DNA of 64,000 nt from contig CAYJKV010000001.1 in the NCBI GenBank assembly GCA_964371255.1, forward strand, positions 99,140 through 163,139. Reading direction: 5' to 3'. The notes below the pieces were generated by a model. The model saw nothing but the letters and a program-made list of their open reading frames with translations. It was not told where the DNA came from and made no database searches. Source of the DNA: an uncultured Candidatus Saccharibacteria bacterium. Its GTDB lineage: Bacteria; Patescibacteriota; Andersenbacteria; UBA10190. This document shows, piece by piece, positions 2,857 to 42,449 of this stretch (positions are counted from its first letter, which is position 1; every line of letters starts with the position of its first letter). The position numbers were made by a program, and so were the translations under genes.

Positions 2857-3116
2857 CAGACTGGGAATCGTTTAAAACGATTATTCTATTAATGGCTATT
2901 GGAATGGATATGACCAAAGAAAGTAAAGCCGAAACCCTAAATCTTTAAATCTTAAATAAATTCGAAATCATAATATTCAAATCATTAACTGACGAATAGC
3001 AGAAGTGTGATGTAGTGAGTGGTGGTCTATCTTGGGGGGGGCAATTCGTCCGAAACTGGAGAGGTCAGCTAAATAAATTTTACAAGTTGTTACTTAAATC
3101 TTATTAATTCATTGAT

Positions 3117-4499
3117 ATGCTTAAACGATCGGATCCAAACTTTTATGCCATTTTGCAGAAAGAGGAAAAGAGGCAACGGGACAAATTATCCCTAATTGCC
3201 TCGGAAAACTGTTTTTCGCCGAGCGTGCGAGAAGCGGTTGGATCCGTATTTAGCCATAAATATTCAGAGGGAAACGTAGGAGAGCGCTATTATCAGGGAA
3301 ACGAATATGTCGACGAGTTAGAAAGTTTGGCAATTGAAAGGGCGCGTATGTTGTTTAGGATACCGAAAGATTGGACGGCGAATGTGCAAGCGTTGTCGGG
3401 CAGTAATGCTAATTTGGCCGTGTACTTAGCGTTAATGGAAGCTGGGGATACTTTAATGTCGATGTACTTACCGGACGGAGGGCACTTATCACATGGCTGG
3501 TCTTTTGAACCGGACGAGAACAAACGCAAGGCTGATCTAAGATCTGGCAGCTTAGTTTATCTGGGTGGTAAGCGTCAGGTGCATCTGACATCGCGGTTAT
3601 ATAGGGTGGTGCAATATAAAACGGAGCAGCAAACAAAAATTTTCAATTATGATGAGGTAGAAAAAATAGCGGTAAAATATAAGCCCCGGTTGATTATTAC
3701 GGGTGGGACGGCCTACCCGCGGAACATAGATTATCGACGAATGCGCAAGATCGCCGATAAAGTGGGCGCTTATTATCTAGCGGATATTGCACATGAGGCC
3801 GGACTGGTGGCTGGTCGGGCAGTACCGTCGCCAGTCGGGGTGGCAGACGTGGTAACAATGACTACCCATAAGACGCTACGAGCAGGACGAGGCGCTATTA
3901 TTCTGGCTAATCAAGAATTAATCAAAAAGATAAATCGGGGATTGCTGCCTGGTCTACAGGGTGGGCCACATAACCATAATATTGCTGGCATTGCCGTGGG
4001 CTTAGGGGAAGCACTGCAGCCGGCATTCGCGGATTATGCCAGACAAGTAGTTAAGAATGCTAAGCATTTAGCTAAAACACTGGCCAAGCAAGGCTTTAGG
4101 ATTGTAACAAAGGGGACCGATAAGCACTTATTATTGATTGACCTTAATGATCAGCCAGTCTGGGGCAAGAATTTTGCATATATCTTAGACCGGGCGGGAC
4201 TAGTCACCAACGCTTCCACTTTGCCGTGGGATAGTTCACCGCCGCGTAATCCGGCAGGACTGAGGCTGGGGACACCGTGGGTGACGACGCGTGGAATGAA
4301 AGAGTCCGAAATGGAGATGATCGCCAACTGGATAAAACAAGTGATGCAGATAGCTGCTCCGTGGTCAGAATTGACGGGGGATCGATTAGTGGAGCAAGTG
4401 ACACAGTCAGCGGAGATAAAAAGGATTGCCCGAGAGGTGGCTAAAGTAGGTCGCCAGTTTATGGATTTCCCGAGAAGAGGGATAATGATAAAAGACTGA
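3117..4499 (+). CDS. glyA: serine hydroxymethyltransferase
   Basis: 460 aa. It shows SLIASENCFSPSVREA and the PLP-lysine region TMTTHKTLRAGRGAII. There is a ~25-aa insertion relative to typical 415-aa SHMTs. Confidence 0.85.
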   Translation: MLKRSDPNFYAILQKEEKRQRDKLSLIASENCFSPSVREAVGSVFSHKYSEGNVGERYYQGNEYVDELESLAIERARMLFRIPKDWTANVQALSGSNANLAVYLALMEAGDTLMSMYLPDGGHLSHGWSFEPDENKRKADLRSGSLVYLGGKRQVHLTSRLYRVVQYKTEQQTKIFNYDEVEKIAVKYKPRLIITGGTAYPRNIDYRRMRKIADKVGAYYLADIAHEAGLVAGRAVPSPVGVADVVTMTTHKTLRAGRGAIILANQELIKKINRGLLPGLQGGPHNHNIAGIAVGLGEALQPAFADYARQVVKNAKHLAKTLAKQGFRIVTKGTDKHLLLIDLNDQPVWGKNFAYILDRAGLVTNASTLPWDSSPPRNPAGLRLGTPWVTTRGMKESEMEMIANWIKQVMQIAAPWSELTGDRLVEQVTQSAEIKRIAREVAKVGRQFMDFPRRGIMIKD

Positions 4500-29852: not shown

Positions 29853-30794
29853 ATGAATGAGGTTGTGTCATTGCCACCCGGGGTCGCCATTGCGATAATT
29901 GCCTTCTTACTGAGCTTGTTGCCAGCAGGGTTATTCATCTGGCTGTGGTATTTGCGACGAGTAGATAGACCGGTACCCAGCCGAACAGTAGCTATATCTT
30001 TCTTGATTGGTCTTTTACTTGTTTGGCCGGCTTTTAAGTTAGAAGCATGGGCGTCAGATGTTTGGTATGCGGTGTCACCAGCGACGGCGCATTATTTTGT
30101 AGGGGCGGTACTGCCGCTGCAGGGAATGGCTGATGTCTTTCTGCCGGCACTGGGCACTTTTGTTGTAGTAGCGACAGTGGAAGAAGGTTTGCGATTTTTG
30201 ATGTTGCTATTGTGGTACAGAAAAAGTCGGGATATTGATCAGGTGTTTGATGGTTTGGTGGTGGGCATAGCGGCCGGACTAGGTTTCGCGACGATGGAGA
30301 ACACGCTATATTTTTTAAATTTATTTACGCAAGGAAGTTTCGATACGCTGGTGTTTGTCTTTTTCCTGCGCTTTATGATTTCAACTTTGGCGCATATATC
30401 GTTCGCAGGTTTGATGGGGGTAATGCTCGCGCGTGGCATCTTTGCTATCTATAAAGTGCAAAAAAGACAGTGGATCATTTTGGCCTTGCTTGTGCCGTGG
30501 TTTTTGCATGGTTTGTATGATCTGTTATTGGGGCTGAATTTGACGATTTATGCCGTGCTGATGTTGTTGCCGTGCTTACTGATATTAGTCGCGTGGATAA
30601 ACCGCCGGGAATTTTTTGCGATAGCCAGACAGCACGGCAAAATATTGGTCAATCAGCGAGCACCGGAAACTCGCTCGATGATAGTGATGCGGAAATATTT
30701 CAAACAAACTGAATCACCCTGGAATATTTATGCTCCCTGGCTGCGCGAGAGGCGTTTGAGGTATACTATTCTTAAGGACTTGGAAAAGGACTAA
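29853..30794 (+). CDS. PrsW-family intramembrane protease
   Basis: EEGLRFL and GFATMENTLYF motifs, with multiple TMs. The track ORF starts with TTG at 29820; the first ATG is at 29853. Confidence 0.6.
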   Translation: MNEVVSLPPGVAIAIIAFLLSLLPAGLFIWLWYLRRVDRPVPSRTVAISFLIGLLLVWPAFKLEAWASDVWYAVSPATAHYFVGAVLPLQGMADVFLPALGTFVVVATVEEGLRFLMLLLWYRKSRDIDQVFDGLVVGIAAGLGFATMENTLYFLNLFTQGSFDTLVFVFFLRFMISTLAHISFAGLMGVMLARGIFAIYKVQKRQWIILALLVPWFLHGLYDLLLGLNLTIYAVLMLLPCLLILVAWINRREFFAIARQHGKILVNQRAPETRSMIVMRKYFKQTESPWNIYAPWLRERRLRYTILKDLEKD

Positions 30795-30796
30795 AT

Positions 30797-31240
30797 ATGA
30801 CTAGAGCACAGATAACGGTGGTGGTATTAATTGCGCTAGTATTACTAGTTGTTTTGGGTTTGGTTGCATCGCGCGTTGGAGGATCAGCAATTCGTACTTC
30901 CGGCCAGGTCCGGATTGGGCAGTTAGAGTTATCCAGTAATAAAATATTACCGGGTGCGCCGGTTACGGTTAGTTATGATTTGATTGAGCTGGACGCGGTG
31001 GATGATGCCTCAATGGTAATGGTTAGGACACCCACGGAAAGCATTGTGATTAGCGAGGTCAGCAGGGCGGAGCTAGGGAACGGTACGTTTATCGTGACTG
31101 TCCCCTGTGAAAAGTATGAAGCACTAGAGAAGAATAAAGCAGGCAGGTTCGTGTTGGTGCTAAACAAAGACCAGCGAGTGCTAGCGCAGAGTGAGCAGTT
31201 TACTTTATTGCCAGCCGGGCCGGAATGCATTTATAAGTAA
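30797..31240 (+). CDS. hypothetical single-pass membrane protein
   Basis: 147 aa with an N-terminal TM (ITVVVLIALVLLVVLGLVA). Confidence 0.35.
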   Translation: MTRAQITVVVLIALVLLVVLGLVASRVGGSAIRTSGQVRIGQLELSSNKILPGAPVTVSYDLIELDAVDDASMVMVRTPTESIVISEVSRAELGNGTFIVTVPCEKYEALEKNKAGRFVLVLNKDQRVLAQSEQFTLLPAGPECIYK

Positions 31241-31303
31241 CAGCCAGCGGATTAACCGAACTACCGCGTTGGCGGTATTTTTTTACGGATGTGATGGGTA
31301 ATA

Positions 31304-32248
31304 TTATGCGACGAGGTCGGGCAGTGACCGGAAGTAATCAATGGTTTTTGTCAGGCCAACGGTCAGGGGAGTGGTCGGATGCCAATTCAGTAATTGCTTG
31401 GCTTTAGTGATGTCCGGTTGGCGACGCTTTGGATCGTCTTGCGGGATTTCTTTATAGACTGGACTGACGGACGGGCCGATCAGGGCAATGACCTGGTCCG
31501 CTAATTCTTGCATGGTAACTTCCTCCGGATTGCCAATGTTAACTGGCCCGGTTTCCTGGTCTTGATTCATCATCCGGATCAGGCCCTCGACATTATCATC
31601 GACATAACAGAAGGAGCGGGTGTGTGAGCCATCGCCATAAATGGTAATGGGTTGCCGGCGCAGAGCTTGGAGAATAAAATTACTGACTACTCGACCGTCG
31701 TCCGGATGCATGCGGGGACCGTAAGTATTAAAAATGCGCACCAGGCGGAGGCTTAAGTTATGTTCACGGTGATAATCCATGCAAAGGGTTTCGGCCACGC
31801 GTTTTCCTTCGTCGTAGCAAGCGCGCGGGCCGAGGCAGTTGACGGATCCTTTGTAGCTTTCCGGTTGGGGATGAACTTCGGGATCGCCATAAACCTCCGA
31901 GGTTGAGGCTTGTAGAATACGAGCTTGCTTGGCTTTCGCGAGGCCAAGCATGTTGATCACCCCTTTGGTGTTGGCTTTAACGGTACGGATAGGATCTTGC
32001 TGGTAGTGAACGGGGGAGGCAGGACAGGCCAGATTATATATCTGATCAATTGGCTGATCTAAATAAAGCGGATCGATAATGTCGTGCTCAAGCAGTGTGA
32101 ACTTTTTATTGGTTAATAAATGCTCAATGTTGCGGTGCTGGCCAGTAAAAAAATTATCAAGACAGATAACCGTGTGGCCGTCGGCCAACAGACGTTCGCT
32201 AAGATGGCTGCCGATGAAGCCTGCCCCGCCGGTAATTAGAATAACCAT
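31304..32248 (-). CDS. UDP-glucuronate decarboxylase (UDP-xylose synthase)-like NAD-dependent dehydratase
   Basis: [14 protein letters not shown] Rossmann motif and the DNFFTG motif characteristic of UXS, plus a YxxxK catalytic region. 314 aa. Confidence 0.75.
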
Positions 32249-32446
32249 ATGCTTTTATAAACATAAGACGGATAAAGGAAAGAGTAAAACGGGTTTAATG
32301 CGCAATGGCCAAGGTCCAAGCAAGACCTCAGCGGTATGGTTAACAACCTATGGCGGCAAGAGAGCAGCGGCAATAACACTAACGAAACATTAAAATATAA
32401 CTTACAAAAAACAGTCCCAGGACTGCTCGTCAAGACGTTTTTTGTG

Positions 32447-32803
32447 TTACGCTTTGCTTTTTTGCACTTGTTCGACGATAGCTTGGAAAGTCTCAGGGTA
32501 ACTGATGGCTATTTCGGAAAGGACTTTGCGATCCAGCTCGACGTTGGTGGCGCGCAGCTGATGGATCAGTCTAGAGTAGGTGGTGCCATGCAATCGAGCG
32601 GCAGCATTGATATCGGTTTGCCACTCTTGCCTTTTCACAGCTTTCTTTTTACGGCGATCAAAGTAAGCGTGCTGGCCGGCTTTCAAGACAGCTTCCTTGG
32701 CTAACTTAAATACTTTACTGCGTCGCCCGCGGTAACCTTTGGCGCGCTTGAGCCACTTATGATGGCGAGCTTTAGTCTGGGGACTGTTGCTGGTGCGTGA
32801 CAT
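32447..32803 (-). CDS. rplT: 50S ribosomal protein L20
   Basis: 118 aa. KRAKGYRGRRSKVFKLAKEAVLKAGQHAYFDRRKKK is typical L20. Confidence 0.9.
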   Translation of the reverse strand: MSRTSNSPQTKARHHKWLKRAKGYRGRRSKVFKLAKEAVLKAGQHAYFDRRKKKAVKRQEWQTDINAAARLHGTTYSRLIHQLRATNVELDRKVLSEIAISYPETFQAIVEQVQKSKA

Positions 32804-32832
32804 ATGGGTATAAAAGATTAATTGGACTTATC

Positions 32833-33027
32833 TTACTGGTAAGGCAATAGATCGTGCAAGTTTGCTTTATCGGCTGACTTAACCAGGCGCCCAGAATGTT
32901 TGCGGCGTGTTTCATCACCAGTGTTCTTGGCATTAAAATGAGATTGGTTAATCGTCTGGTGTTTAGCTTTTCCCCGTGAGGAAAAACTGAATCTTTTATT
33001 GGCAGCGCGGTTGGTTTTTTGCTTCAT
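32833..33027 (-). CDS. rpmI: 50S ribosomal protein L35
   Basis: 64 aa, basic. MKQKTNRAANKRFSFSSRGKAKH. Position between infC and rplT. Confidence 0.85.
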   Translation of the reverse strand: MKQKTNRAANKRFSFSSRGKAKHQTINQSHFNAKNTGDETRRKHSGRLVKSADKANLHDLLPYQ

Positions 33028-33092
33028 AAAATAGGGAGAAAACAGGAAATTAACAGATAAAGAGGCGGAAAATGTATGATAGGGGATAAATA

Positions 33093-33638
33093 CTAACGTG
33101 TCAACAGGGCAGATAAACCGCGAGGCGAGCGTCCAACCCGGCCCTCGATTTTTGCTCCACCGGGCACGGCGACGACAAAATCATGCAGCTTTTGTTCGGC
33201 CATCCGCTCGCGGCTTCGTTCACGGCCGCGAAGGCGTATTTCCAGTTTAACTTTATTGCCTTCTGCCAAAAAGCGGTCAGCCTGAGTGAGGCGAAGGTTC
33301 CAATCATGCTCACCAATCTTGAAACCAATGCGTACGCCTTTAATGTTGCCGGTCTTACTGATTTTCTTTTGTTTGGCTTGTTTCTTACTCTTTTCGTACA
33401 TGTGCTTGCCAACATCCATAAGTCGGGCGACGGGTGGATCGGTTTTTTCGGCGACGACAACCAAGTCTGTCCCCGCTTCCTCCGCTTTCGCGCGAGCTTC
33501 GCTGGTGGGCATGACGCCCAATTGCTCACTGTCGACGCCGATCAGGCGTACTTGAGAAGCAAAAATTTCCTCGTTGGTGGGAGGTTTTTTAACCTGCGGC
33601 TTGGGCCTGGAACGAAAACGGCGGCGACGAGATGACAT
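33093..33638 (-). CDS. infC: translation initiation factor IF-3
   Basis: EIFASQVRLIGVDSEQLGVMPTSEARAKAEEAGTDLVVV...KGVRIGFKIGEHDW. Canonical infC-rpmI-rplT order on the minus strand. Confidence 0.9.
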   Translation of the reverse strand: MSSRRRRFRSRPKPQVKKPPTNEEIFASQVRLIGVDSEQLGVMPTSEARAKAEEAGTDLVVVAEKTDPPVARLMDVGKHMYEKSKKQAKQKKISKTGNIKGVRIGFKIGEHDWNLRLTQADRFLAEGNKVKLEIRLRGRERSRERMAEQKLHDFVVAVPGGAKIEGRVGRSPRGLSALLTR

Positions 33639-33980
33639 AGTGGAATAATTTCAAAATCCAAATGACAAATGTCAAAAGGAGATAAGTATAACTTAAATTT
33701 TAGAGTGATGCGGTTTTGCGCATCTGGGGGGTATATTAGAGGTTATTTTCGCATTTGGCAATATGAGGATGAATAGCTACTTAGGAATACCTTATCTGTG
33801 AATGGTTTCTGAGTGTGTTTATGAGGTATTGGTTGGTAACTAAATGTCCAATGACCAATAACCTAAAAGTCAAAGCTCAATTGATCCTCCTTTTTCGAGA
33901 AACATAAATGATCATAAAACAGTTTTTACTATCGAGGGTCGGTATTTTTTTAGTAGGGGAGGGATGCTATTGTTAAATCT

Positions 33981-34427
33981 ATGAAAACAGTTGTTAACAA
34001 AAGGGCAAGGTTTGATTATGAGTTGATTGAAAAATACGAAGGAGGGCTTGTTTTGTTGGGTACTGAAGTAAAGTCGGTGAAGGCGGGGAATATCAGTCTC
34101 AAAGGATCCTTTGTGACTTTTCATGGTGATGAACCATATCTAACAAACGCGACTATTCCGCCATGGCAGGTGATTAACGCGCCGGCCGATTATGACCCAG
34201 AACGGTCTCGAAAGATATTGCTTACCAAAGCGGAAATAAAAGAGTTGATAGGAGCGAAACAGACAAGGGGGTTGACAATAGTGCCTGTGCGTGTCTATAC
34301 TAAAGGACCTCGAGTAAAAATTGAGATAGCGTTGGCTAAGGGAAAGCAAATGGTGGATAAGAAGAAGGAAAAGAAGGAGAAAGATATTGCCCGGGAAACG
34401 CAAAGGTTTTTAAGAGGGAAAGAATGA
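33981..34427 (+). CDS. smpB: SsrA-binding protein
   Basis: 148 aa. RARFDYELIEKYEGGLVLLGTEVKSVKAGNISLKGSFV is a typical SmpB core, with a basic C-terminal tail. Confidence 0.9.
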   Translation: MKTVVNKRARFDYELIEKYEGGLVLLGTEVKSVKAGNISLKGSFVTFHGDEPYLTNATIPPWQVINAPADYDPERSRKILLTKAEIKELIGAKQTRGLTIVPVRVYTKGPRVKIEIALAKGKQMVDKKKEKKEKDIARETQRFLRGKE

Positions 34428-34648
34428 AATGTCCAATGACCAATTCCCAATGTCCAATCAATGACCAAATCCCAAAGATAATAGACACAAATTAATATCA
34501 AAATATAAACAGAAAATCTAAGGTGTTGTTTGTTGAATTTATAATTTGTTAGGATTTCGTGAAGAAGGGAGAGGTTGAGAGTAGTTAGTCTGACCGGCGC
34601 TGTAGTTTGCTAACGATGAGGGGCATGCCCTGTCGTTCGCGAACGACA

Positions 34649-35039
34649 GGGCATGTTAGGCTTCGATGGAATGTTGTTTGTTCAATTAGCGTGTAGTGAG
34701 GGGTGAATGACTCACTCAAATCAATTGTTCACAAAGTTACGTGCAAACTTATTTAGTCGCGTGAAGGCAGCTTTTGCTCCTTCATTTGCGCCAGCTTTCG
34801 CTTAATACCGAAAGCCATCGTGTTAGATCAGCCGTTGGATCTTCTCACGGTGTCAACCTAAACGGCTATATATATTGAGAATTGAGAGGCTTAATATACA
34901 AACTGCACTAAATCTCACACTGTCTGGAATACTTGGCTGGTCTGCTGGTTCCAGGTAGTGTAAAAAAATTAGTCCAGCTACACACGTAGAAAATTGGATA
35001 ATATCGTTTCAGACGGCGGTTCAATTCCGCCCATGTCCA
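34649..35039 (+). ncRNA. ssrA: tmRNA (transfer-messenger RNA)
   Basis: The 5' end GGGCAUGUUAGGCUUCGAUGG matches the tmRNA 5' consensus. The 3' end GACGGCGGUUCAAUUCCGCCCAUGUCCA has a T-arm plus acceptor strand that pairs with the 5' GGGCAUG, including a G-U at position 3 as in E. coli. CCA is not encoded. It lies immediately downstream of smpB. The candidate tag ORF at 34767-34805 encodes AAFAPSFAPAFA, ending in AFA as in some known tags. Confidence 0.75.
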
Positions 35040-35173
35040 CTGATATGAGGGAAGGGAGGTATCCCTTCCCTCATCGAAAAATTGCCTGGCAATTTTCCTG
35101 CTCCTATTCCACAAGGTGTCCTCAGTTTCCGGCGGAGCCGGAAATTCGGATTTAATTAAAATGTACTTGACCC
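35031..35173. repeat. repeat R1: ssrA 3'-end plus ~130-bp downstream unit with three palindromes
   Basis: Begins CCATGTCCACTGATATGAGGGAAGGGAGGTATCCCTTCCCTCA, then AAAATTGCCTGGCAATTTT, then TTCCGGCGGAGCCGGAA, then a T-rich run ending ATGTACTTGACCC. Copy 1 overlaps the true tmRNA 3' end. Confidence 0.85.
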
Positions 35174-36051: not shown

Positions 36052-36155
36052 TGACAATCTTGCAGCTCTCGCTCTTTGTAGTGAGAGCTTTTTTTGCTTA
36101 ATTTAGTAACACAAACAAACGAAATAACTCCGTCCGCAAAGTGTTCCAACCGTTT

Positions 36156-36289
36156 CCGCCCATGTCCACTGATATGAGGGAAGGGAGGTATCCCCTCCCT
36201 CATCGAAAAATTGCCTGGCAATTTTCCTGCTCCTATTCCACAAGGTGTCCTCAGTTTCCGGCGGAGCCGGAAATTCGGATTTAGTTAAA
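36156..36289. repeat. repeat R2 (copy of R1 including TTCCGCCCATGTCCAC ssrA 3'-end segment)
   Basis: About 95% identical to R1 over ~125 bp. It shares 16 nt of the tmRNA 3' end and diverges in the last ~15 bp. Confidence 0.85.
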
Positions 36290-36321
36290 TTTCAAACATC
36301 GGGTGTTTGAATTTTCTAACT

Positions 36322-36948: not shown

Positions 36949-37384
36949 ACCGTGATTATCTCTCTGTAGTCCTAGAAGTCAATTAGACGTGAGGCTGTAA
37001 ATATTGCGTCTTCATGAAATTCAAACACCCGACATTTGAAAAGCCATGACCAGGCCGATAAGGGCGATATCTGGCCTATCGGTATAATAATTGAGATTCA
37101 AGCAATATTTACATATCTGCATGTGTGCCGTAGAGCAGATGGTGCCAGGACTATTGCTGATACATTACACTTACTATTAGATTATGAGGGCTAGAAGCCG
37201 TATTGTGGTTATTCAAACATCGGGTGTTTGAATTTTTAATTTTTGGAATGCTGTTTTTTTTCAAAACAGACCAAATAAACCCCTTCGCATAGTCTGGCAT
37301 TGATTTTGCCACTAAATAGCCTCATTATACAGAACAGACGTTCTTTTTGGTTGGGGTACCTTACATTTCTAATTTTATGAAGGG

Positions 37385-37582
37385 ATGGGTCACATGGCTC
37401 AGTTTGATGATCTTGAGCTAAACAGAGCCGCAGAAGAGGTACACGCGGCTGCGCAGGCTGGCAGAGACGGTTATAGTGATGCTGCCACGCGCTGGCTAGA
37501 CGAGACAACGGATGCGGCCAAGCAAGCCATCAATGACAGAGTTGTCGAAAAGTACGGGGAGGAACATCGGCGCAAGTTTTAG
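37385..37582 (+). CDS. small conserved hypothetical protein (paralog A)
   Basis: 65 aa, with its own RBS (GAAGGGA) and a terminator hairpin after the stop. Its C-terminus AINDRVVEKYGEEHRRKF parallels the 41380 ORF. Confidence 0.5.
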   Translation: MGHMAQFDDLELNRAAEEVHAAAQAGRDGYSDAATRWLDETTDAAKQAINDRVVEKYGEEHRRKF

Positions 37583-37726
37583 TGTGCTAGAAGGCAAGCG
37601 AAGCATATCGACGAGCGCACAGTTCTTAGATAGCGACATCGAACAGATCCAAGACAACCGCCGTGGGTAACTGCAGCGGTTTTTTAAAATCGCTCTTGTA
37701 ATACAAGTAAACCAAACAACTTTTTT

Positions 37727-37895
37727 CGCAAAGTGTTCCAACTCGATCTCACCATGTCCACTGATATGAGGGAAGGGAGGTATCCCTTCCCTCATCGAAA
37801 AATTGCCTGGCAATTTTCCTGCTCCTATTCCACAAGGTGTCCTCAGTTTCCGGCGGAGCCGGAAATTCGGATTTAATTAAAATGTACTTGACCCC
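37727..37895. repeat. repeat R3 (third copy, contains CCATGTCCAC ssrA 3'-end segment)
   Basis: Near-identical to R1, including the tail ATGTACTTGACCC. It shares the upstream CGCAAAGTGTTCCAAC with R2. It is followed by a C7-T4-C9-T8 homopolymer tract. Confidence 0.85.
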
Positions 37896-38702: not shown

Positions 38703-39644
38703 CTATGATTTCGGAATCGGCTGGTGGCATGACACTCGCGAGCGCATGTACTGCCATGATGCGTCGTTGGAAACGAAAAAGGCGACGATGTACAGCAGGA
38801 TGCCGCAAAACTTGCTTATTGCTACCGACTCGCCAAAGAAGAGCATTCCCGCGATCATGGTGGTAGAAAGATAGGTACCGTTCATGACCAGACTTTTGAG
38901 AGCAATGCCAGCACCGGATTTGTAGCTCATCACCTTGAAGGACCACATCGCCAGAACCAGCAAACCGACAACAAACGAGAACGCGTATATGCGCAGAATG
39001 TTGTTTGTGGTTGGCAGGATGATGGCAAACGAATTTAAGCATGACAAGGCAATGAGGCAACAGGCCAGTGTTCCGACACCACCCCAAAAGTTTTTAGCCA
39101 TGGGGTGAATCTGTTTGATCCAACGGGAAAGAAGTTCATTGACCACGCCGAGCACCATGACACCGCCTGACAACCATACCCAGGCAGGCAAGGAGAGTAA
39201 TTCCGTGAGGCTTGGCAGTCCCAGAACGACATAGCCAGCGAAAATGCCGAGGATGAAGCCACCCAGGGTGCGCAGACTAAAGCGGTCTTTGAAGACCAAT
39301 GAATCAATCACGGCACTGGGGAAAATCGCCAGAGTGATGATGAACGTGGAAACCCCGATACTGCCGTTGAAGCGTGGCAGAAATACGCTGAAAGCGAGCA
39401 CGGTCATAAAGAAGGCGACAATACCGAACGCTAGTGCGCCGAAAAGCAAACGTTTGTCACACCAGGTAGAGATACGGCGGCGACGCAGCACGCCATAGCC
39501 GATGGTGATTTGCACGAGGCTGATGATGAGCGCTGCCAGAACCATGTGTGCAAACAAAGTGCTGGCGTAACCGACTAACTTCTGCAGGATTTTGGTGAAC
39601 GTTTTAGTAAGTGCTTCACCGAACGACCATAGTACCCATTGCAT
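38703..39644 (-). CDS. polytopic membrane protein, EamA/DMT-like transporter
   Basis: 313 aa with about 10 TM helices. The size and topology fit the drug/metabolite transporter superfamily. Confidence 0.4.
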   Translation of the reverse strand: MQWVLWSFGEALTKTFTKILQKLVGYASTLFAHMVLAALIISLVQITIGYGVLRRRRISTWCDKRLLFGALAFGIVAFFMTVLAFSVFLPRFNGSIGVSTFIITLAIFPSAVIDSLVFKDRFSLRTLGGFILGIFAGYVVLGLPSLTELLSLPAWVWLSGGVMVLGVVNELLSRWIKQIHPMAKNFWGGVGTLACCLIALSCLNSFAIILPTTNNILRIYAFSFVVGLLVLAMWSFKVMSYKSGAGIALKSLVMNGTYLSTTMIAGMLFFGESVAISKFCGILLYIVAFFVSNDASWQYMRSRVSCHQPIPKS

Positions 39645-39920
39645 CGTAAAACCCCTGGAGGATTAGATGGCAAGTCCGTATCGTGTTGGTAAGGAACGAC
39701 TGCTAAAATTAGCAGATTTATAGGAAAGAACAAGAGTAAGTGGAGTTTTTCTTTGCTCAAGGTTAGGCGGGATTACAAAGAGTTTTAGAATTTGACGGAA
39801 TTGATAAATATTGTTACAGGTTAGTGTTGTGTAGATACGACAGTACGTTCACAATTTTTGGTTTTCAGGTAAATCAGACAGAACCGAGAATGTCTGGTTC
39901 TGGAGAAGGAGTATCGTACC

Positions 39921-41216
39921 ATGTCAACATTTGATCCGCCTCTCGAGGCTGCTGGCAATTCGACAGATGAGTTTGATCCTTACTATAAATGGCTATCAAT
40001 TCCACCAAATCAGCAGCCGCCTAATCTCTACCGTTTATTAGGGGTTGAACCATTTGAGGAAGATCGTGAAGTTATTAGCTGCGCAGTTGATCGGCAAGCG
40101 GCTTATGTCCGTTCCTGTAAACTTGGCCAGCGTGGCAATTCATGTGAAGATGTCCTAACTGAGATTTTTCAAGCGAAGGTTTGTTTGTTGGATCCCGTGC
40201 GCAAAGCCGAATACGATCAAGGGTTACGGGACCAACTGACCGTAGTCGTCAAATCAGGTGTGGCACAAGTAGGTATTAGACAAGCTGGTCAACCCAAGCG
40301 GCGCAAAAAGAAGAGTGTTTTGTGGGAGGTAACCAAGACGGTGTTGGGCGGTATTGGAGGATTATTCTTTGCCACCCTGATGCTGTGGTATGGCCTTGGT
40401 GTTGATCCGTTGGGTGTTATGGCGCCTAAGGAGCCCAACCTCTCTAAAGCTCAGGTCGAGGCAGTAGATCGTGACAATGCTGACCAGCAGTTAAAAAGTG
40501 AGCTCAAGAGAGCCCATCAAGAGGGGCAGGCAGCAAAACGTAAAATTAACAACCTGCAAACAGACAATGTGGGACAAGGGAGAAGCCTGGCAGGCAGACA
40601 GCAAATAAAATCAGCAGAGGACTTGGGATGGATAGACCTATTGAAATTGATCGACGTTAATAAACATGTCGTCGTTGGCAGATGGTCTCGTAACAAAGAC
40701 GGGGTAAGCACAGAACCGGCCTTAGGTTCCCGAATAACCGTTCCTAGTTTTTTAGACGGTAGCTATGAGATAAGCGTCGATTTTACCAAGCAGACGGGTA
40801 ACGAATCTGTTACTGTGATATTGCCTGTCCACACCACTAGCTGCGTTTTTTATCTGAGTGGGTGGGAGAATTCAGTCCATGGTCTAGGCCTTGTTGACGA
40901 AACATATCCTGGCTCTTGGCGGGAAAATTATGAATTGGCCAAGAAGTTCCTGATTGTCAATAACCAGCGTTACCGTTTGGATATAAGCGTGAATATCCAG
41001 AAGGACACTGTAACTATCGATACCCAGCTCGATCGAAAGCCGCTCTACTCTTGGCAGGGGAAGATTGATAGATTATCGATCTCCTCTTCTACAACTATGC
41101 CCAATCGTAATTCATTGGGACTGGGAGCTTCCCAGGGCAGGTGCACTTTCCATCGGGTGGAACTACGTCTTTTGGGGTCAGGCACTGGCGCATCGGTTCT
41201 TTCGAACCTCAAGTAG
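39921..41216 (+). CDS. membrane-anchored protein with J-domain-like N-terminus
   Basis: The N-terminus DPYYKWLSIPPNQQPPNLYRLLGVEPFEEDREVISCAVDRQAAYVRS...KAEYDQGL resembles J-domain helices II-IV but lacks HPD. One TM follows (VLGGIGGLFFATLMLWYGLGV), then a coiled coil and a ~200-aa C-terminal domain. Confidence 0.45.
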   Translation: MSTFDPPLEAAGNSTDEFDPYYKWLSIPPNQQPPNLYRLLGVEPFEEDREVISCAVDRQAAYVRSCKLGQRGNSCEDVLTEIFQAKVCLLDPVRKAEYDQGLRDQLTVVVKSGVAQVGIRQAGQPKRRKKKSVLWEVTKTVLGGIGGLFFATLMLWYGLGVDPLGVMAPKEPNLSKAQVEAVDRDNADQQLKSELKRAHQEGQAAKRKINNLQTDNVGQGRSLAGRQQIKSAEDLGWIDLLKLIDVNKHVVVGRWSRNKDGVSTEPALGSRITVPSFLDGSYEISVDFTKQTGNESVTVILPVHTTSCVFYLSGWENSVHGLGLVDETYPGSWRENYELAKKFLIVNNQRYRLDISVNIQKDTVTIDTQLDRKPLYSWQGKIDRLSISSSTTMPNRNSLGLGASQGRCTFHRVELRLLGSGTGASVLSNLK

Positions 41217-41379
41217 GGGAATGGAAATAGCTAGTACGTTACCCACATAAATTGCTGTGGGTTTTTTTATTGGTATAAGCAGTAAGAATACAGTGGCCGT
41301 TTGACGAGGATTGCTAAGGTGTTAACATGTCTGGTTCGGTGAAGGAGTTGTACTTTTGGGTTTTTGAAAGGGTTTAATT

Positions 41380-41568
41380 ATGAGTCGTTGGGATGATGAT
41401 GTGTTGAGAGAGGCGGCTAATTATGTCCATTATGAGCTTGGTAATGATCGGGATGCATACCAAGCAACAGCGCGACGGTTTTTGAATGACGACAGTACGG
41501 AGGCGCTGCAGGCAATCAACGACAAGGTGGTTGATTTGTTTGGGCATGATTATCGGGTGCGCTTTTAG
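41380..41568 (+). CDS. small conserved hypothetical protein (paralog B)
   Basis: 62 aa. Its C-terminus AINDKVVDLFGHDYRVRF is paralogous to 37385..37582. It has its own RBS and terminator (CCGTCTAC..GTAGACGGTTTTT). Confidence 0.5.
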   Translation: MSRWDDDVLREAANYVHYELGNDRDAYQATARRFLNDDSTEALQAINDKVVDLFGHDYRVRF

Positions 41569-42245: not shown

Positions 42246-42449
42246 ATGCTAGTACTCTCGAGGAAAAAAAACGAGTCGATTGTCATCAACGATGATATCA
42301 CGATAGTAGTTGTGGAAATTCGTGGTGACAAGGTTCGGCTCGGGGTCGATGCACCGAAAGAGGTTCCTGTGCACAGGCGCGAGGTATACGAGGCGATTCA
42401 ACGAGAACTCAGGGATAGTGAGGTTTTGCCAGAAGATGAGACTGGTTAG
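42246..42449 (+). CDS. csrA: carbon storage regulator CsrA
   Basis: [51 protein letters not shown] is a near-canonical CsrA. 67 aa. Confidence 0.9.

Follow-up and report, generated by a model that had tools for sequence, protein, structure and literature searches.

An Andersenbacteria genome encodes a single-pass membrane protein with an HPD-less J-fold from a large, Planctomycetota-centred family

The 64,000-nt stretch of DNA analysed here (the window) encodes, at positions 39921–41216 of its forward strand, a 431-residue membrane protein whose N-terminal domain is related to the J-domain of DnaJ and lacks the histidine–proline–aspartate (HPD) tripeptide. The work combined a list of open reading frames (ORFs) and translations, from which a first-pass annotation had been made, with a computational follow-up of this one ORF, which lies exactly where that annotation had placed it. 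The coding sequence begins with ATG, 9 nt after a Shine–Dalgarno-like element, GGAGAAGGAG (39902–39911, +), that was read from the sequence. A consensus scan located a terminator-like hairpin (41241–41262) with a T-run 25 nt past the stop codon, together spanning 41241–41272 (+). The predicted product comprises a cytoplasmic J-fold, one transmembrane (TM) anchor, a stalk and an extracytoplasmic lectin-type domain. Its first 17 residues (39921–39971, +) form an N-terminal extension that is poorly conserved—35–53% identical among orthologs, with a ratio of nonsynonymous to synonymous substitution rates (dN/dS) of 0.3–1.0—and that is modelled with a low predicted local distance difference test (pLDDT) score.

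Residues 18–105 (39972–40235, +) form the HPD-less J-fold domain, in which a leader, FDPYYKWLSIPPNQQPPN, is followed by J-type helices I–IV, as assigned from profile searches, hhalign, an AlphaFold2 (AF2) model and Foldseek. When the whole 431-residue protein was used as a single sequence, searches of Pfam, NCBIfam and PDB sequences returned noise only, and a word-index protein search with the 93-residue N-terminal domain alone returned one candidate, a result that reflects a limitation of the index and is not evidence of absence. The relationship is described here from alignment A1, in which the N-terminal domain of the window protein and those of relatives found in databases make up 12 sequences. 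The A1 profile, searched against PDB sequences, matched the J-domain of Escherichia coli DnaJ at an E-value of 2e-4 with full-domain coverage. Because 15 of its 16 PDB matches are J-domains, the resemblance is far beyond chance. Aligned by hhalign with eight classical J-domains, A1 gave a probability of 91.7% and an E-value of 7.9e-7 over 66 columns. The AF2 model of residues 1–110 reached a pLDDT of 82.8, and its best 34 Foldseek matches in the PDB were all J-domains (probability 1.0), with target TM-scores of 0.6–0.83 and root-mean-square deviations (r.m.s.d.) of about 2–2.8 Å over 65–75 columns. The first-pass annotation had compared this N terminus to a J-domain without HPD and had quoted the motifs DPYYKWLSIPPNQQPPNLYRLLGV and KAEYDQGL; both motifs are present, and the profile search, hhalign and Foldseek all support the comparison.

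The tripeptide HPD occurs nowhere in the 431 residues, as had been noted. In HMMER and hhalign alignments, which are concordant, H33-P34-D35 of E. coli DnaJ falls opposite V63-R64-S65 (40107–40115, +). The residues with which DnaJ docks onto DnaK—R22, K26, R27, K48 and K51 (PMC8215388)—align to I52/S53, V56/D57, D57/gap, T80 and F83, none of which is basic, and the family consensus at these five positions is I, A, D, N and A. The J-fold and the KxxYD signature of helix IV are kept. The curated Pfam DnaJ model (PF00226) scores the window protein below its threshold (E = 0.083; 13.5 bits versus a cut-off of 27.8) and matches 7 of the 12 A1 members, weakly only. As read from these alignments, the domain is without every feature known to be needed for DnaK activation, and because HPD and all five basic docking residues are missing, it would be incapable of canonical activation of the DnaK ATPase. 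Its fold and the homology that can be detected place the domain in the J-domain superfamily, although it fails the features that define J-domain proteins, namely HPD, the basic docking face and the threshold of the curated model.

One hydrophobic helix was found, at residues 137–161 (40329–40403, +; 1.45–1.69 in 19-residue Kyte–Doolittle windows), in agreement with the TM helix of the first-pass annotation. It is preceded by a basic juxtamembrane stretch, KRRKKK, at residues 126–131 (40296–40313, +). Because this stretch lies ahead of the TM helix, the positive-inside rule would place the N terminus in the cytoplasm and the C terminus outside. The helix is followed by a polar, charged stalk (residues 162–235; 40404–40625, +) that evolves quickly, with 30–39% identity among orthologs; dN/dS for linker and stalk is 0.3–0.6 among three orthologs. 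A coiled coil had been proposed at this position, and a crude heptad scan found no clean heptad register in the stalk of the window protein; the same scan gave a clean register in one ortholog only (P0003 type, residues 189–218).

The remaining domain (residues 236–419; 40626–41177, +) is predicted to be an extracytoplasmic beta-sandwich of the concanavalin-A-like lectin or carbohydrate-binding-module (CBM) type. Its AF2 model, built from 17 sequences, has 13 strands, a pLDDT of 88.6 and a predicted TM-score of 0.85, and the first-pass expectation of a C-terminal domain thus corresponds to a structured unit of about 185 residues. Foldseek returned 160 PDB matches at E ≤ 1e-3, the best being CBM66 (4azz; E = 1.8e-6, probability 1.0), followed by VIP36, legume lectins and galectins. 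No curated family in Pfam or NCBIfam (PF06439, PF13385 and others) covers the domain, and its profile matched nothing among PDB sequences. Relatives of residues 226–431 are hypothetical proteins from metagenome-assembled genomes (MAGs) of Planctomycetota, in which the domain often follows a helical-repeat region. The model assigns the domain to the concanavalin-A-like lectin/glucanase fold. Because of this fold, and because binding modules occupy the same position in other members of the family described below, the domain probably binds a ligand, likely a glycan. A comparison of three orthologs gave dN/dS values of about 0.15 (J-like domain) and 0.10–0.13 (lectin-like domain), which are rough, given that dS is near saturation. 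Because these ratios are low, as expected of purifying selection, both domains appear functional in these genomes. One metagenomic protein of 263 residues (P0005) joins, in a single reading frame, an ASCH domain (PF04266) to the lectin-like domain of a P0002-type gene, with the ASCH domain standing in place of the J-like domain, TM helix and stalk; the fusion was produced either by faulty assembly or by natural recombination.

An exhaustive search with the A1 hidden Markov model (HMM) over 1.84 billion representatives of 50%-identity clusters recovered at least 10,115 clusters at E ≤ 1e-3, 8,604 at E ≤ 1e-10 and 4,096 at E ≤ 1e-30. We sampled 159 members for architecture, 202 domains for loop statistics and 64 members for annotation of the C terminus. 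The module begins within 30 residues of the N terminus in 152 of the 159 members and is followed by a TM helix in 136 (exactly one in 127; median gap, 60 residues), and 44 members carry two to five tandem copies. Its most conserved part is the leader ahead of helix I, FDPYxxWLGIPPxxQPPN, and the module as a whole can be written as FDPYxxWLGIPPxxQPPNxYRLLG plus a J-fold in which [VLI]-R-[ST] replaces HPD. None of the 202 domains contains HPD. Their loop consensus is H-[VLI]-R(77%)/K(9%)-[TS]-[FY]-Q-[TS]-G, with an acidic helix II, and at the three motif positions [VLI]-[RK]-[ST] the frequencies are V 42, L 41 and I 15%, R 77 and K 9%, and T 32 and S 29%, a pattern that V63-R64-S65 of the window protein fits. 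The C-terminal domains of the 64 annotated members include FGE-sulfatase (8), Laminin_G_3 (5), NPCBM (4), WD40 propellers (3), DUF1080 (2) and PA14.

The window protein has the family signature, FDPYxxWL.IP...PP.xYRLL...YD..L, at its N terminus. It retains all invariant columns (F18, D19, P20, Y21, W24, L25, I27, P33, P34, Y37, R38, L39, L40, V51, G69, A85, L89, L90, Y98, D99 and L102), scores E = 1.2e-46 against the family HMM, and shares with the family the architecture of a single TM helix and an extracytoplasmic domain. Neither Pfam nor NCBIfam holds a model for the module, and searches of the literature on the motif, on planctomycete J-like proteins and on atypical planctomycete Hsp70s found no description. 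A large census of J-proteins excluded all HPD-less sequences by design (PMC10410713). The family, which is very large and has its own conserved loop motif, is thus uncurated and undescribed because censuses of J-domains discard sequences without HPD and because Pfam and NCBIfam have no model for it. Two adjectives of the first-pass annotation do not survive these numbers: a domain found in so many clusters is not 'uncommon', and one with a conserved alternative loop motif is not 'degenerate'.

The taxonomic distribution was examined in GTDB, with one genome per species, where at least 575 loci encode the module; taxonomy was inspected for the best 80 of these. Nearly all of the 80 belong to Pirellulales, Planctomycetaceae, Thermoguttaceae or otherwise to Planctomycetota, often with several loci per genome, and all have a GC content of at least 0.5 (median, 0.62), which bears out the earlier impression of a lineage-restricted family. 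The genome in the window is of a different kind. Clustered at 90% identity, its IF3 and SmpB group with proteins from Candidatus Andersenbacteria and from Parcubacteria bacterium GW2011_GWA2_45_14 (Patescibacteria, or the ultra-small bacteria of the Candidate Phyla Radiation (CPR)), and on these marker proteins the genome is that of a CPR bacterium of the Andersenbacteria, not of a planctomycete. At least 23 contigs (up to 247 kb) from several samples encode the identical 431-residue protein within an unchanged gene order and also carry Andersenbacteria-type IF3, L20, SmpB and transfer-messenger RNA (tmRNA). Because the exact protein keeps its gene order on all of these contigs, the gene is not an artefact of binning. 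The ortholog P0002 (60% identical) belongs to a series of Andersenbacteria MAGs that also supplied a pair of IF3 and SmpB proteins. In a scan of viral contigs (IMG/VR), only three loci carried the module (L089–L091; 46–52% identical to the window domain), and a phage vector is therefore not indicated.

Because a Planctomycetota-type family here sits in an Andersenbacteria genome, we infer horizontal transfer. Several features of the locus accompany this distribution. Orthologs are very few: the protein search gave about four sequence types, and JGI metagenomes yielded only four loci. Window positions 30261–35041 align collinearly, at 75–90% nucleotide identity, with the related Andersenbacteria contig L092, and the collinearity stops at the 3′ end of the tmRNA gene (34649–35042, +; Rfam RF00023, 120 bits), where the blastn alignment ends at 35041; beyond its tmRNA, L092 instead encodes a transposase, a GmrSD/HNH protein, a methylase and a Fic protein. 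The P0002 loci are homologous to the window only over 39785–41276, that is, over the gene, its upstream region and the terminator-like hairpin, and at the P0002 loci the gene is flanked by Y1 (IS200-type) transposases. Eleven further representatives, for example P0084 on a 3.96-Mb contig, have the full architecture with this C-terminal family, as do the planctomycete loci L039, L037, L047, L043, L016 and L059. In a neighbour-joining (NJ) tree of the lectin-like domain, which is weak at about 29% identity, the Andersenbacteria sequences form one clade within planctomycete diversity. We consider it likely that the gene was acquired horizontally and whole from Planctomycetota and was then retained. 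The first-pass annotation had also suggested horizontal acquisition and an accessory location, and the CPR identity of the genome, the end of L092 synteny at the tmRNA and the single-gene homology to ortholog loci agree with it.

Between the tmRNA and the gene lies a variable region. Three direct copies of a 184-nt unit (34977–35160, 36106–36289 and 37698–37881, all +; repeat family D1, 82–100% identity, confirmed by a k-mer check) each consist of the tmRNA 3′ end and a hairpin, ATGAGGGAAGGGAGGTATCCCTTCCCTCAT. These direct repeats bound two small islets of one or two ORFs each, with no family match and no integrase, and the array resembles what repeated integration at the tmRNA would leave behind. 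The contigs of many relatives end just past the tmRNA. We considered and rejected the placement of the J-like gene inside a delimited tmRNA island: the gene is 2 kb beyond the last attachment-site-like repeat, with no integrase, and no ORF between 35284 and 44173 belongs to an integrase-like family. The gene belongs to the variable flank. Within the window, a 25-nt palindromic element, TTCAAACATCGGGTGTTTGAATTTT, occurs at 36291–36315 and 37212–37236, with an inverted copy at 37017–37041. The same element is present in multiple or tandem copies beside genes for Y1 (IS200/RAYT-like) transposases in the Andersenbacteria contigs L081 (3103–3222 and 4039–4108) and L082 (4896–5015), which come from relatives, and it resembles elements of the repetitive extragenic palindromic type. 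Across most of the 64 kb, the GC skew of the forward strand is very strong, at 0.2–0.29, and nearly all genes are co-oriented. The skew falls to between −0.04 and 0.13 near the tmRNA-proximal variable region (trough at about 31–41 kb and 43–46 kb), and that of the J-like gene itself is 0.11, versus 0.22–0.27 for large forward-strand genes in the rest of the window.

Downstream of the J-like gene, csrA (42246–42449; Pfam CsrA, E = 1.9e-27) follows at a distance of 1 kb with two small ORFs between, in keeping with the csrA that had been reported nearby. One 62-residue ORF (41380–41568) begins 164 nt 3′ of the J-like gene and has a paralog (37394–37582; 40% identity, E = 2e-14) inside the second tmRNA islet; neither has a match in Pfam or NCBIfam. 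The divergent upstream neighbour (38703–39644, −) encodes a 313-residue multi-pass membrane protein with a weak EamA-like match (E = 0.0067). At the ortholog locus L100, the EamA-like gene (3055–3996, −) is still linked, 2 kb downstream, with a Y1 transposase between. Family searches with the other ORFs neighbouring the J-like gene gave no match, and no second copy of the J-like or lectin-like domain was found across the 64-kb window.

A partner for the J-like domain was sought by clustering all neighbouring ORFs in the 80 planctomycete loci. The commonest neighbour is a gene of the Hsp70 superfamily, present in 8 of the 80 (L013, L014, L028, L035, L044, L047, L056 and L063) and immediately adjacent, mostly in divergent orientation, in six to seven of these; no other neighbour family recurs across the 80 loci, eight being the maximum. 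An anti-sigma-factor arrangement, in which a cytoplasmic domain, a TM helix and a periplasmic sensor would accompany an adjacent gene for an extracytoplasmic-function sigma factor, was considered and rejected, as no sigma factor recurs. The neighbouring Hsp70s match Pfam HSP70 at E = 1e-114. Because they score 320–394 bits against the DnaK and HscA equivalog models, far under the cut-offs of 620–1019, they are atypical paralogs. All seven informative sequences have aspartate at the position of DnaK R167, reading (L/I)-D-I-(I/V)-NEPTAA versus K-R-I-I-NEPTAA in DnaK, which is seen in the PDB alignment too. In the same proteins Q378 is replaced by Y or F and E217 by R, K, T or N, and the VLLLD interdomain linker is not conserved. 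No GrpE-like protein or other chaperone partner was found beside the planctomycete Hsp70s.

In DnaK, R167 and Q378 bond with the HPD aspartate (PMC8215388). An arginine adjoining the position of that aspartate is conserved in the J-like family, which has Asp or Glu where the docking residues of DnaJ are basic. With aspartate in place of R167, the DnaK contact of the HPD aspartate, charges may have been exchanged across the interface, and the pattern is one that a charge-swapped, orthogonal pair would be expected to show. On the J side, HPD would have become xR[ST] and helix II acidic; on the Hsp70 side, R167 would have become aspartate and E217 basic. The fuller proposition that such a pair serves thousands of single-pass receptors, of which the Andersenbacteria copy would be one acquired across phyla, is speculative, and we regard it as unlikely. 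Under the same proposition, the acquisition may reflect a physical association of the CPR lineage with planctomycete hosts, with the lectin-like domain serving attachment.

The interpretation that we favour, though by no means strongly, joins the architecture, which is established from sequence, profiles and modelled structure, with the transfer and a docking role. The J-like domain would most likely provide a docking site in the cytoplasm, through which a ligand-binding domain on the outside, probably a glycan binder, is linked to a partner within. Among Planctomycetota, the presumed donors, the strongest candidate for that partner would be the atypical Hsp70 paralog that often adjoins such genes. 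The gene would have passed on its own from a planctomycete into the Andersenbacteria, at a time remote enough for its composition to have become host-like, and purifying selection would have kept it there.

Several points weigh against one or another part of this interpretation. The GC content of the J-like gene is 0.477 and that at third codon positions (GC3) is 0.468, versus 0.468 for the window, so that composition, which the first-pass annotation had hoped would mark the gene as foreign, lends the transfer no independent support; because the composition matches the host, the acquisition is not recent. For its direction, the transfer depends on parsimony and on an NJ tree, rooted at the midpoint, of domains that are about 29% identical. 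A few of the best 80 GTDB loci are labelled as non-planctomycete (Peribacteraceae, Nealsonbacteria, Actinomycetes and Gammaproteobacteria). These labels include L052 (Peribacteraceae, 2.9 kb) and L058 (Nealsonbacteria, 5.5 kb), both CPR, as well as L003 and L053. A GC content of 0.56–0.69 and short contigs suggest misbinning, although separate transfers to further CPR bacteria are conceivable. The match to lectin folds is moderate (TM-score 0.5–0.66, r.m.s.d. about 5 Å) and is no proof of carbohydrate binding. No Hsp70 gene is present in the 64-kb window, to which this search was confined; Hsp70 adjacency occurs in only 10% of the sampled planctomycete loci; and the charge-swap pairing comes from alignments rather than from a modelled or measured complex.

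The partner of the J-like domain need not be an Hsp70. The domain could instead be an Hsp70-independent module for interaction or oligomerization, as in ARC6/Ftn2(ZipN), with the Hsp70 genes adjacent incidentally. ARC6 has the same layout, and its J-like domain binds no chloroplast Hsp70s and tunes other interactions (bioRxiv 10.1101/2024.01.08.574726). No Hsp70 lies near the gene in 72 of the 80 planctomycete loci, the tandem copies in 44 of the 159 sampled members would fit a scaffold or self-association role, and the domain is conserved in a CPR genome without a known dedicated Hsp70 partner. Set against this are the six to seven immediately adjacent Hsp70 genes among 80 paralogous loci, many more than expected by chance in a rough estimate from typical Hsp70 copy numbers, and the substitutions that those Hsp70s share at J-domain contact sites (R167D, Q378Y/F and a changed E217). 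We take such a module to be a serious possibility, if a somewhat doubtful one. A working but divergent co-chaperone, which would recruit and activate the housekeeping DnaK at the membrane in the manner of DjlA, DjlB and DjlC, would account for the retained J-fold and helix IV signature, and membrane-anchored J-domain proteins do occur in bacteria (PMC8215388). HPD substitutions, however, abolish ATPase stimulation in every tested system (PMC8215388), and the absence of HPD from every domain examined, the loss of all five basic docking residues beside an acidic helix II, and a Pfam DnaJ score about half its cut-off make this role very improbable.

The foreign origin of the gene can be questioned separately, either as planctomycete DNA misplaced into a CPR bin by binning or assembly or as an ancient gene inherited vertically within CPR. 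The gene matches the window in GC and GC3, and taxonomic labels of MAGs are sometimes wrong. Misplacement is opposed by the recurrence of the identical protein, in unchanged gene order, on the contigs with Andersenbacteria-type markers from several samples. The tiny ortholog group, the single-gene block of homology in differing contexts, and the occurrence of both domain families otherwise in high-GC Planctomycetota likewise speak against a gene that is not foreign, and we give this explanation very little credence.

Comparison with known systems helps to place the docking-module interpretation. Like the DnaJ/Hsp40 J-domain (PF00226; E. coli DnaJ 1–70, PDB 1BQZ/5NRO), the module has four helices, and the two align in register at helix I (YxLLG), through the core of helices II and III, and at the KxxYD motif of helix IV; profile searches detect the homology. 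It differs in its [VLI]-R-[ST] for HPD, the absence of the basic docking residues, the acidic helix II, the 17-residue leader FDPYxxWLGIPPxxQPPN and the sub-threshold Pfam score. In architecture, the closest analogue would be ARC6/Ftn2(ZipN), with an HPD-less J-like domain on the inside or stromal face, one TM helix and a C terminus beyond the membrane. ARC6 differs in that it has a PPQ loop, binds FtsZ and carries another C-terminal domain, whereas the present family has varied C termini and is centred on Planctomycetota. No match of the ARC6/ZipN type appeared in the PDB sequence and fold searches, and the likeness is one of description, with no sequences compared. Pam16/Tim16 and DNAJD-type proteins likewise use an HPD-less J-fold as a regulatory or binding module and not as an ATPase activator (PMC11349236, PMC8605242). 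They differ in being eukaryotic and organellar and in pairing with a true J-protein, Pam18, and no such partner is known for the J-like family. DjlA, DjlB and DjlC are J-type modules tethered at the inner membrane and dedicated to the Hsp70 paralogs DnaK/HscC (PMC8215388), but they keep HPD or HPE, have the module at the opposite end relative to the anchor and lack an extracytoplasmic lectin-type domain. On the outer side, the beta-sandwich fold is common to CBM66/DUF1080 (the 3-keto-disaccharide hydrolase family), legume lectins, VIP36 and galectins, with which there is no sequence match, and Laminin_G_3, DUF1080, NPCBM and PA14 occupy the position of the lectin domain in other members of the J-like family.

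The window thus holds a member of an undescribed family that numbers over 10,000 clusters and is otherwise at home in another phylum. If the xR[ST] loop pairs with Asp167-type Hsp70s, the family would represent a natural, orthogonally re-engineered J/Hsp70 interface, and it could also help to explain how binding domains in the planctomycete periplasm are connected to the cytoplasm. In the context of CPR bacteria, the gene is a well-anchored case of a predicted surface-exposed, lectin-type protein that probably came from another phylum and is maintained by selection, and it offers a clue to the cell-surface interactions of an uncultured lineage.

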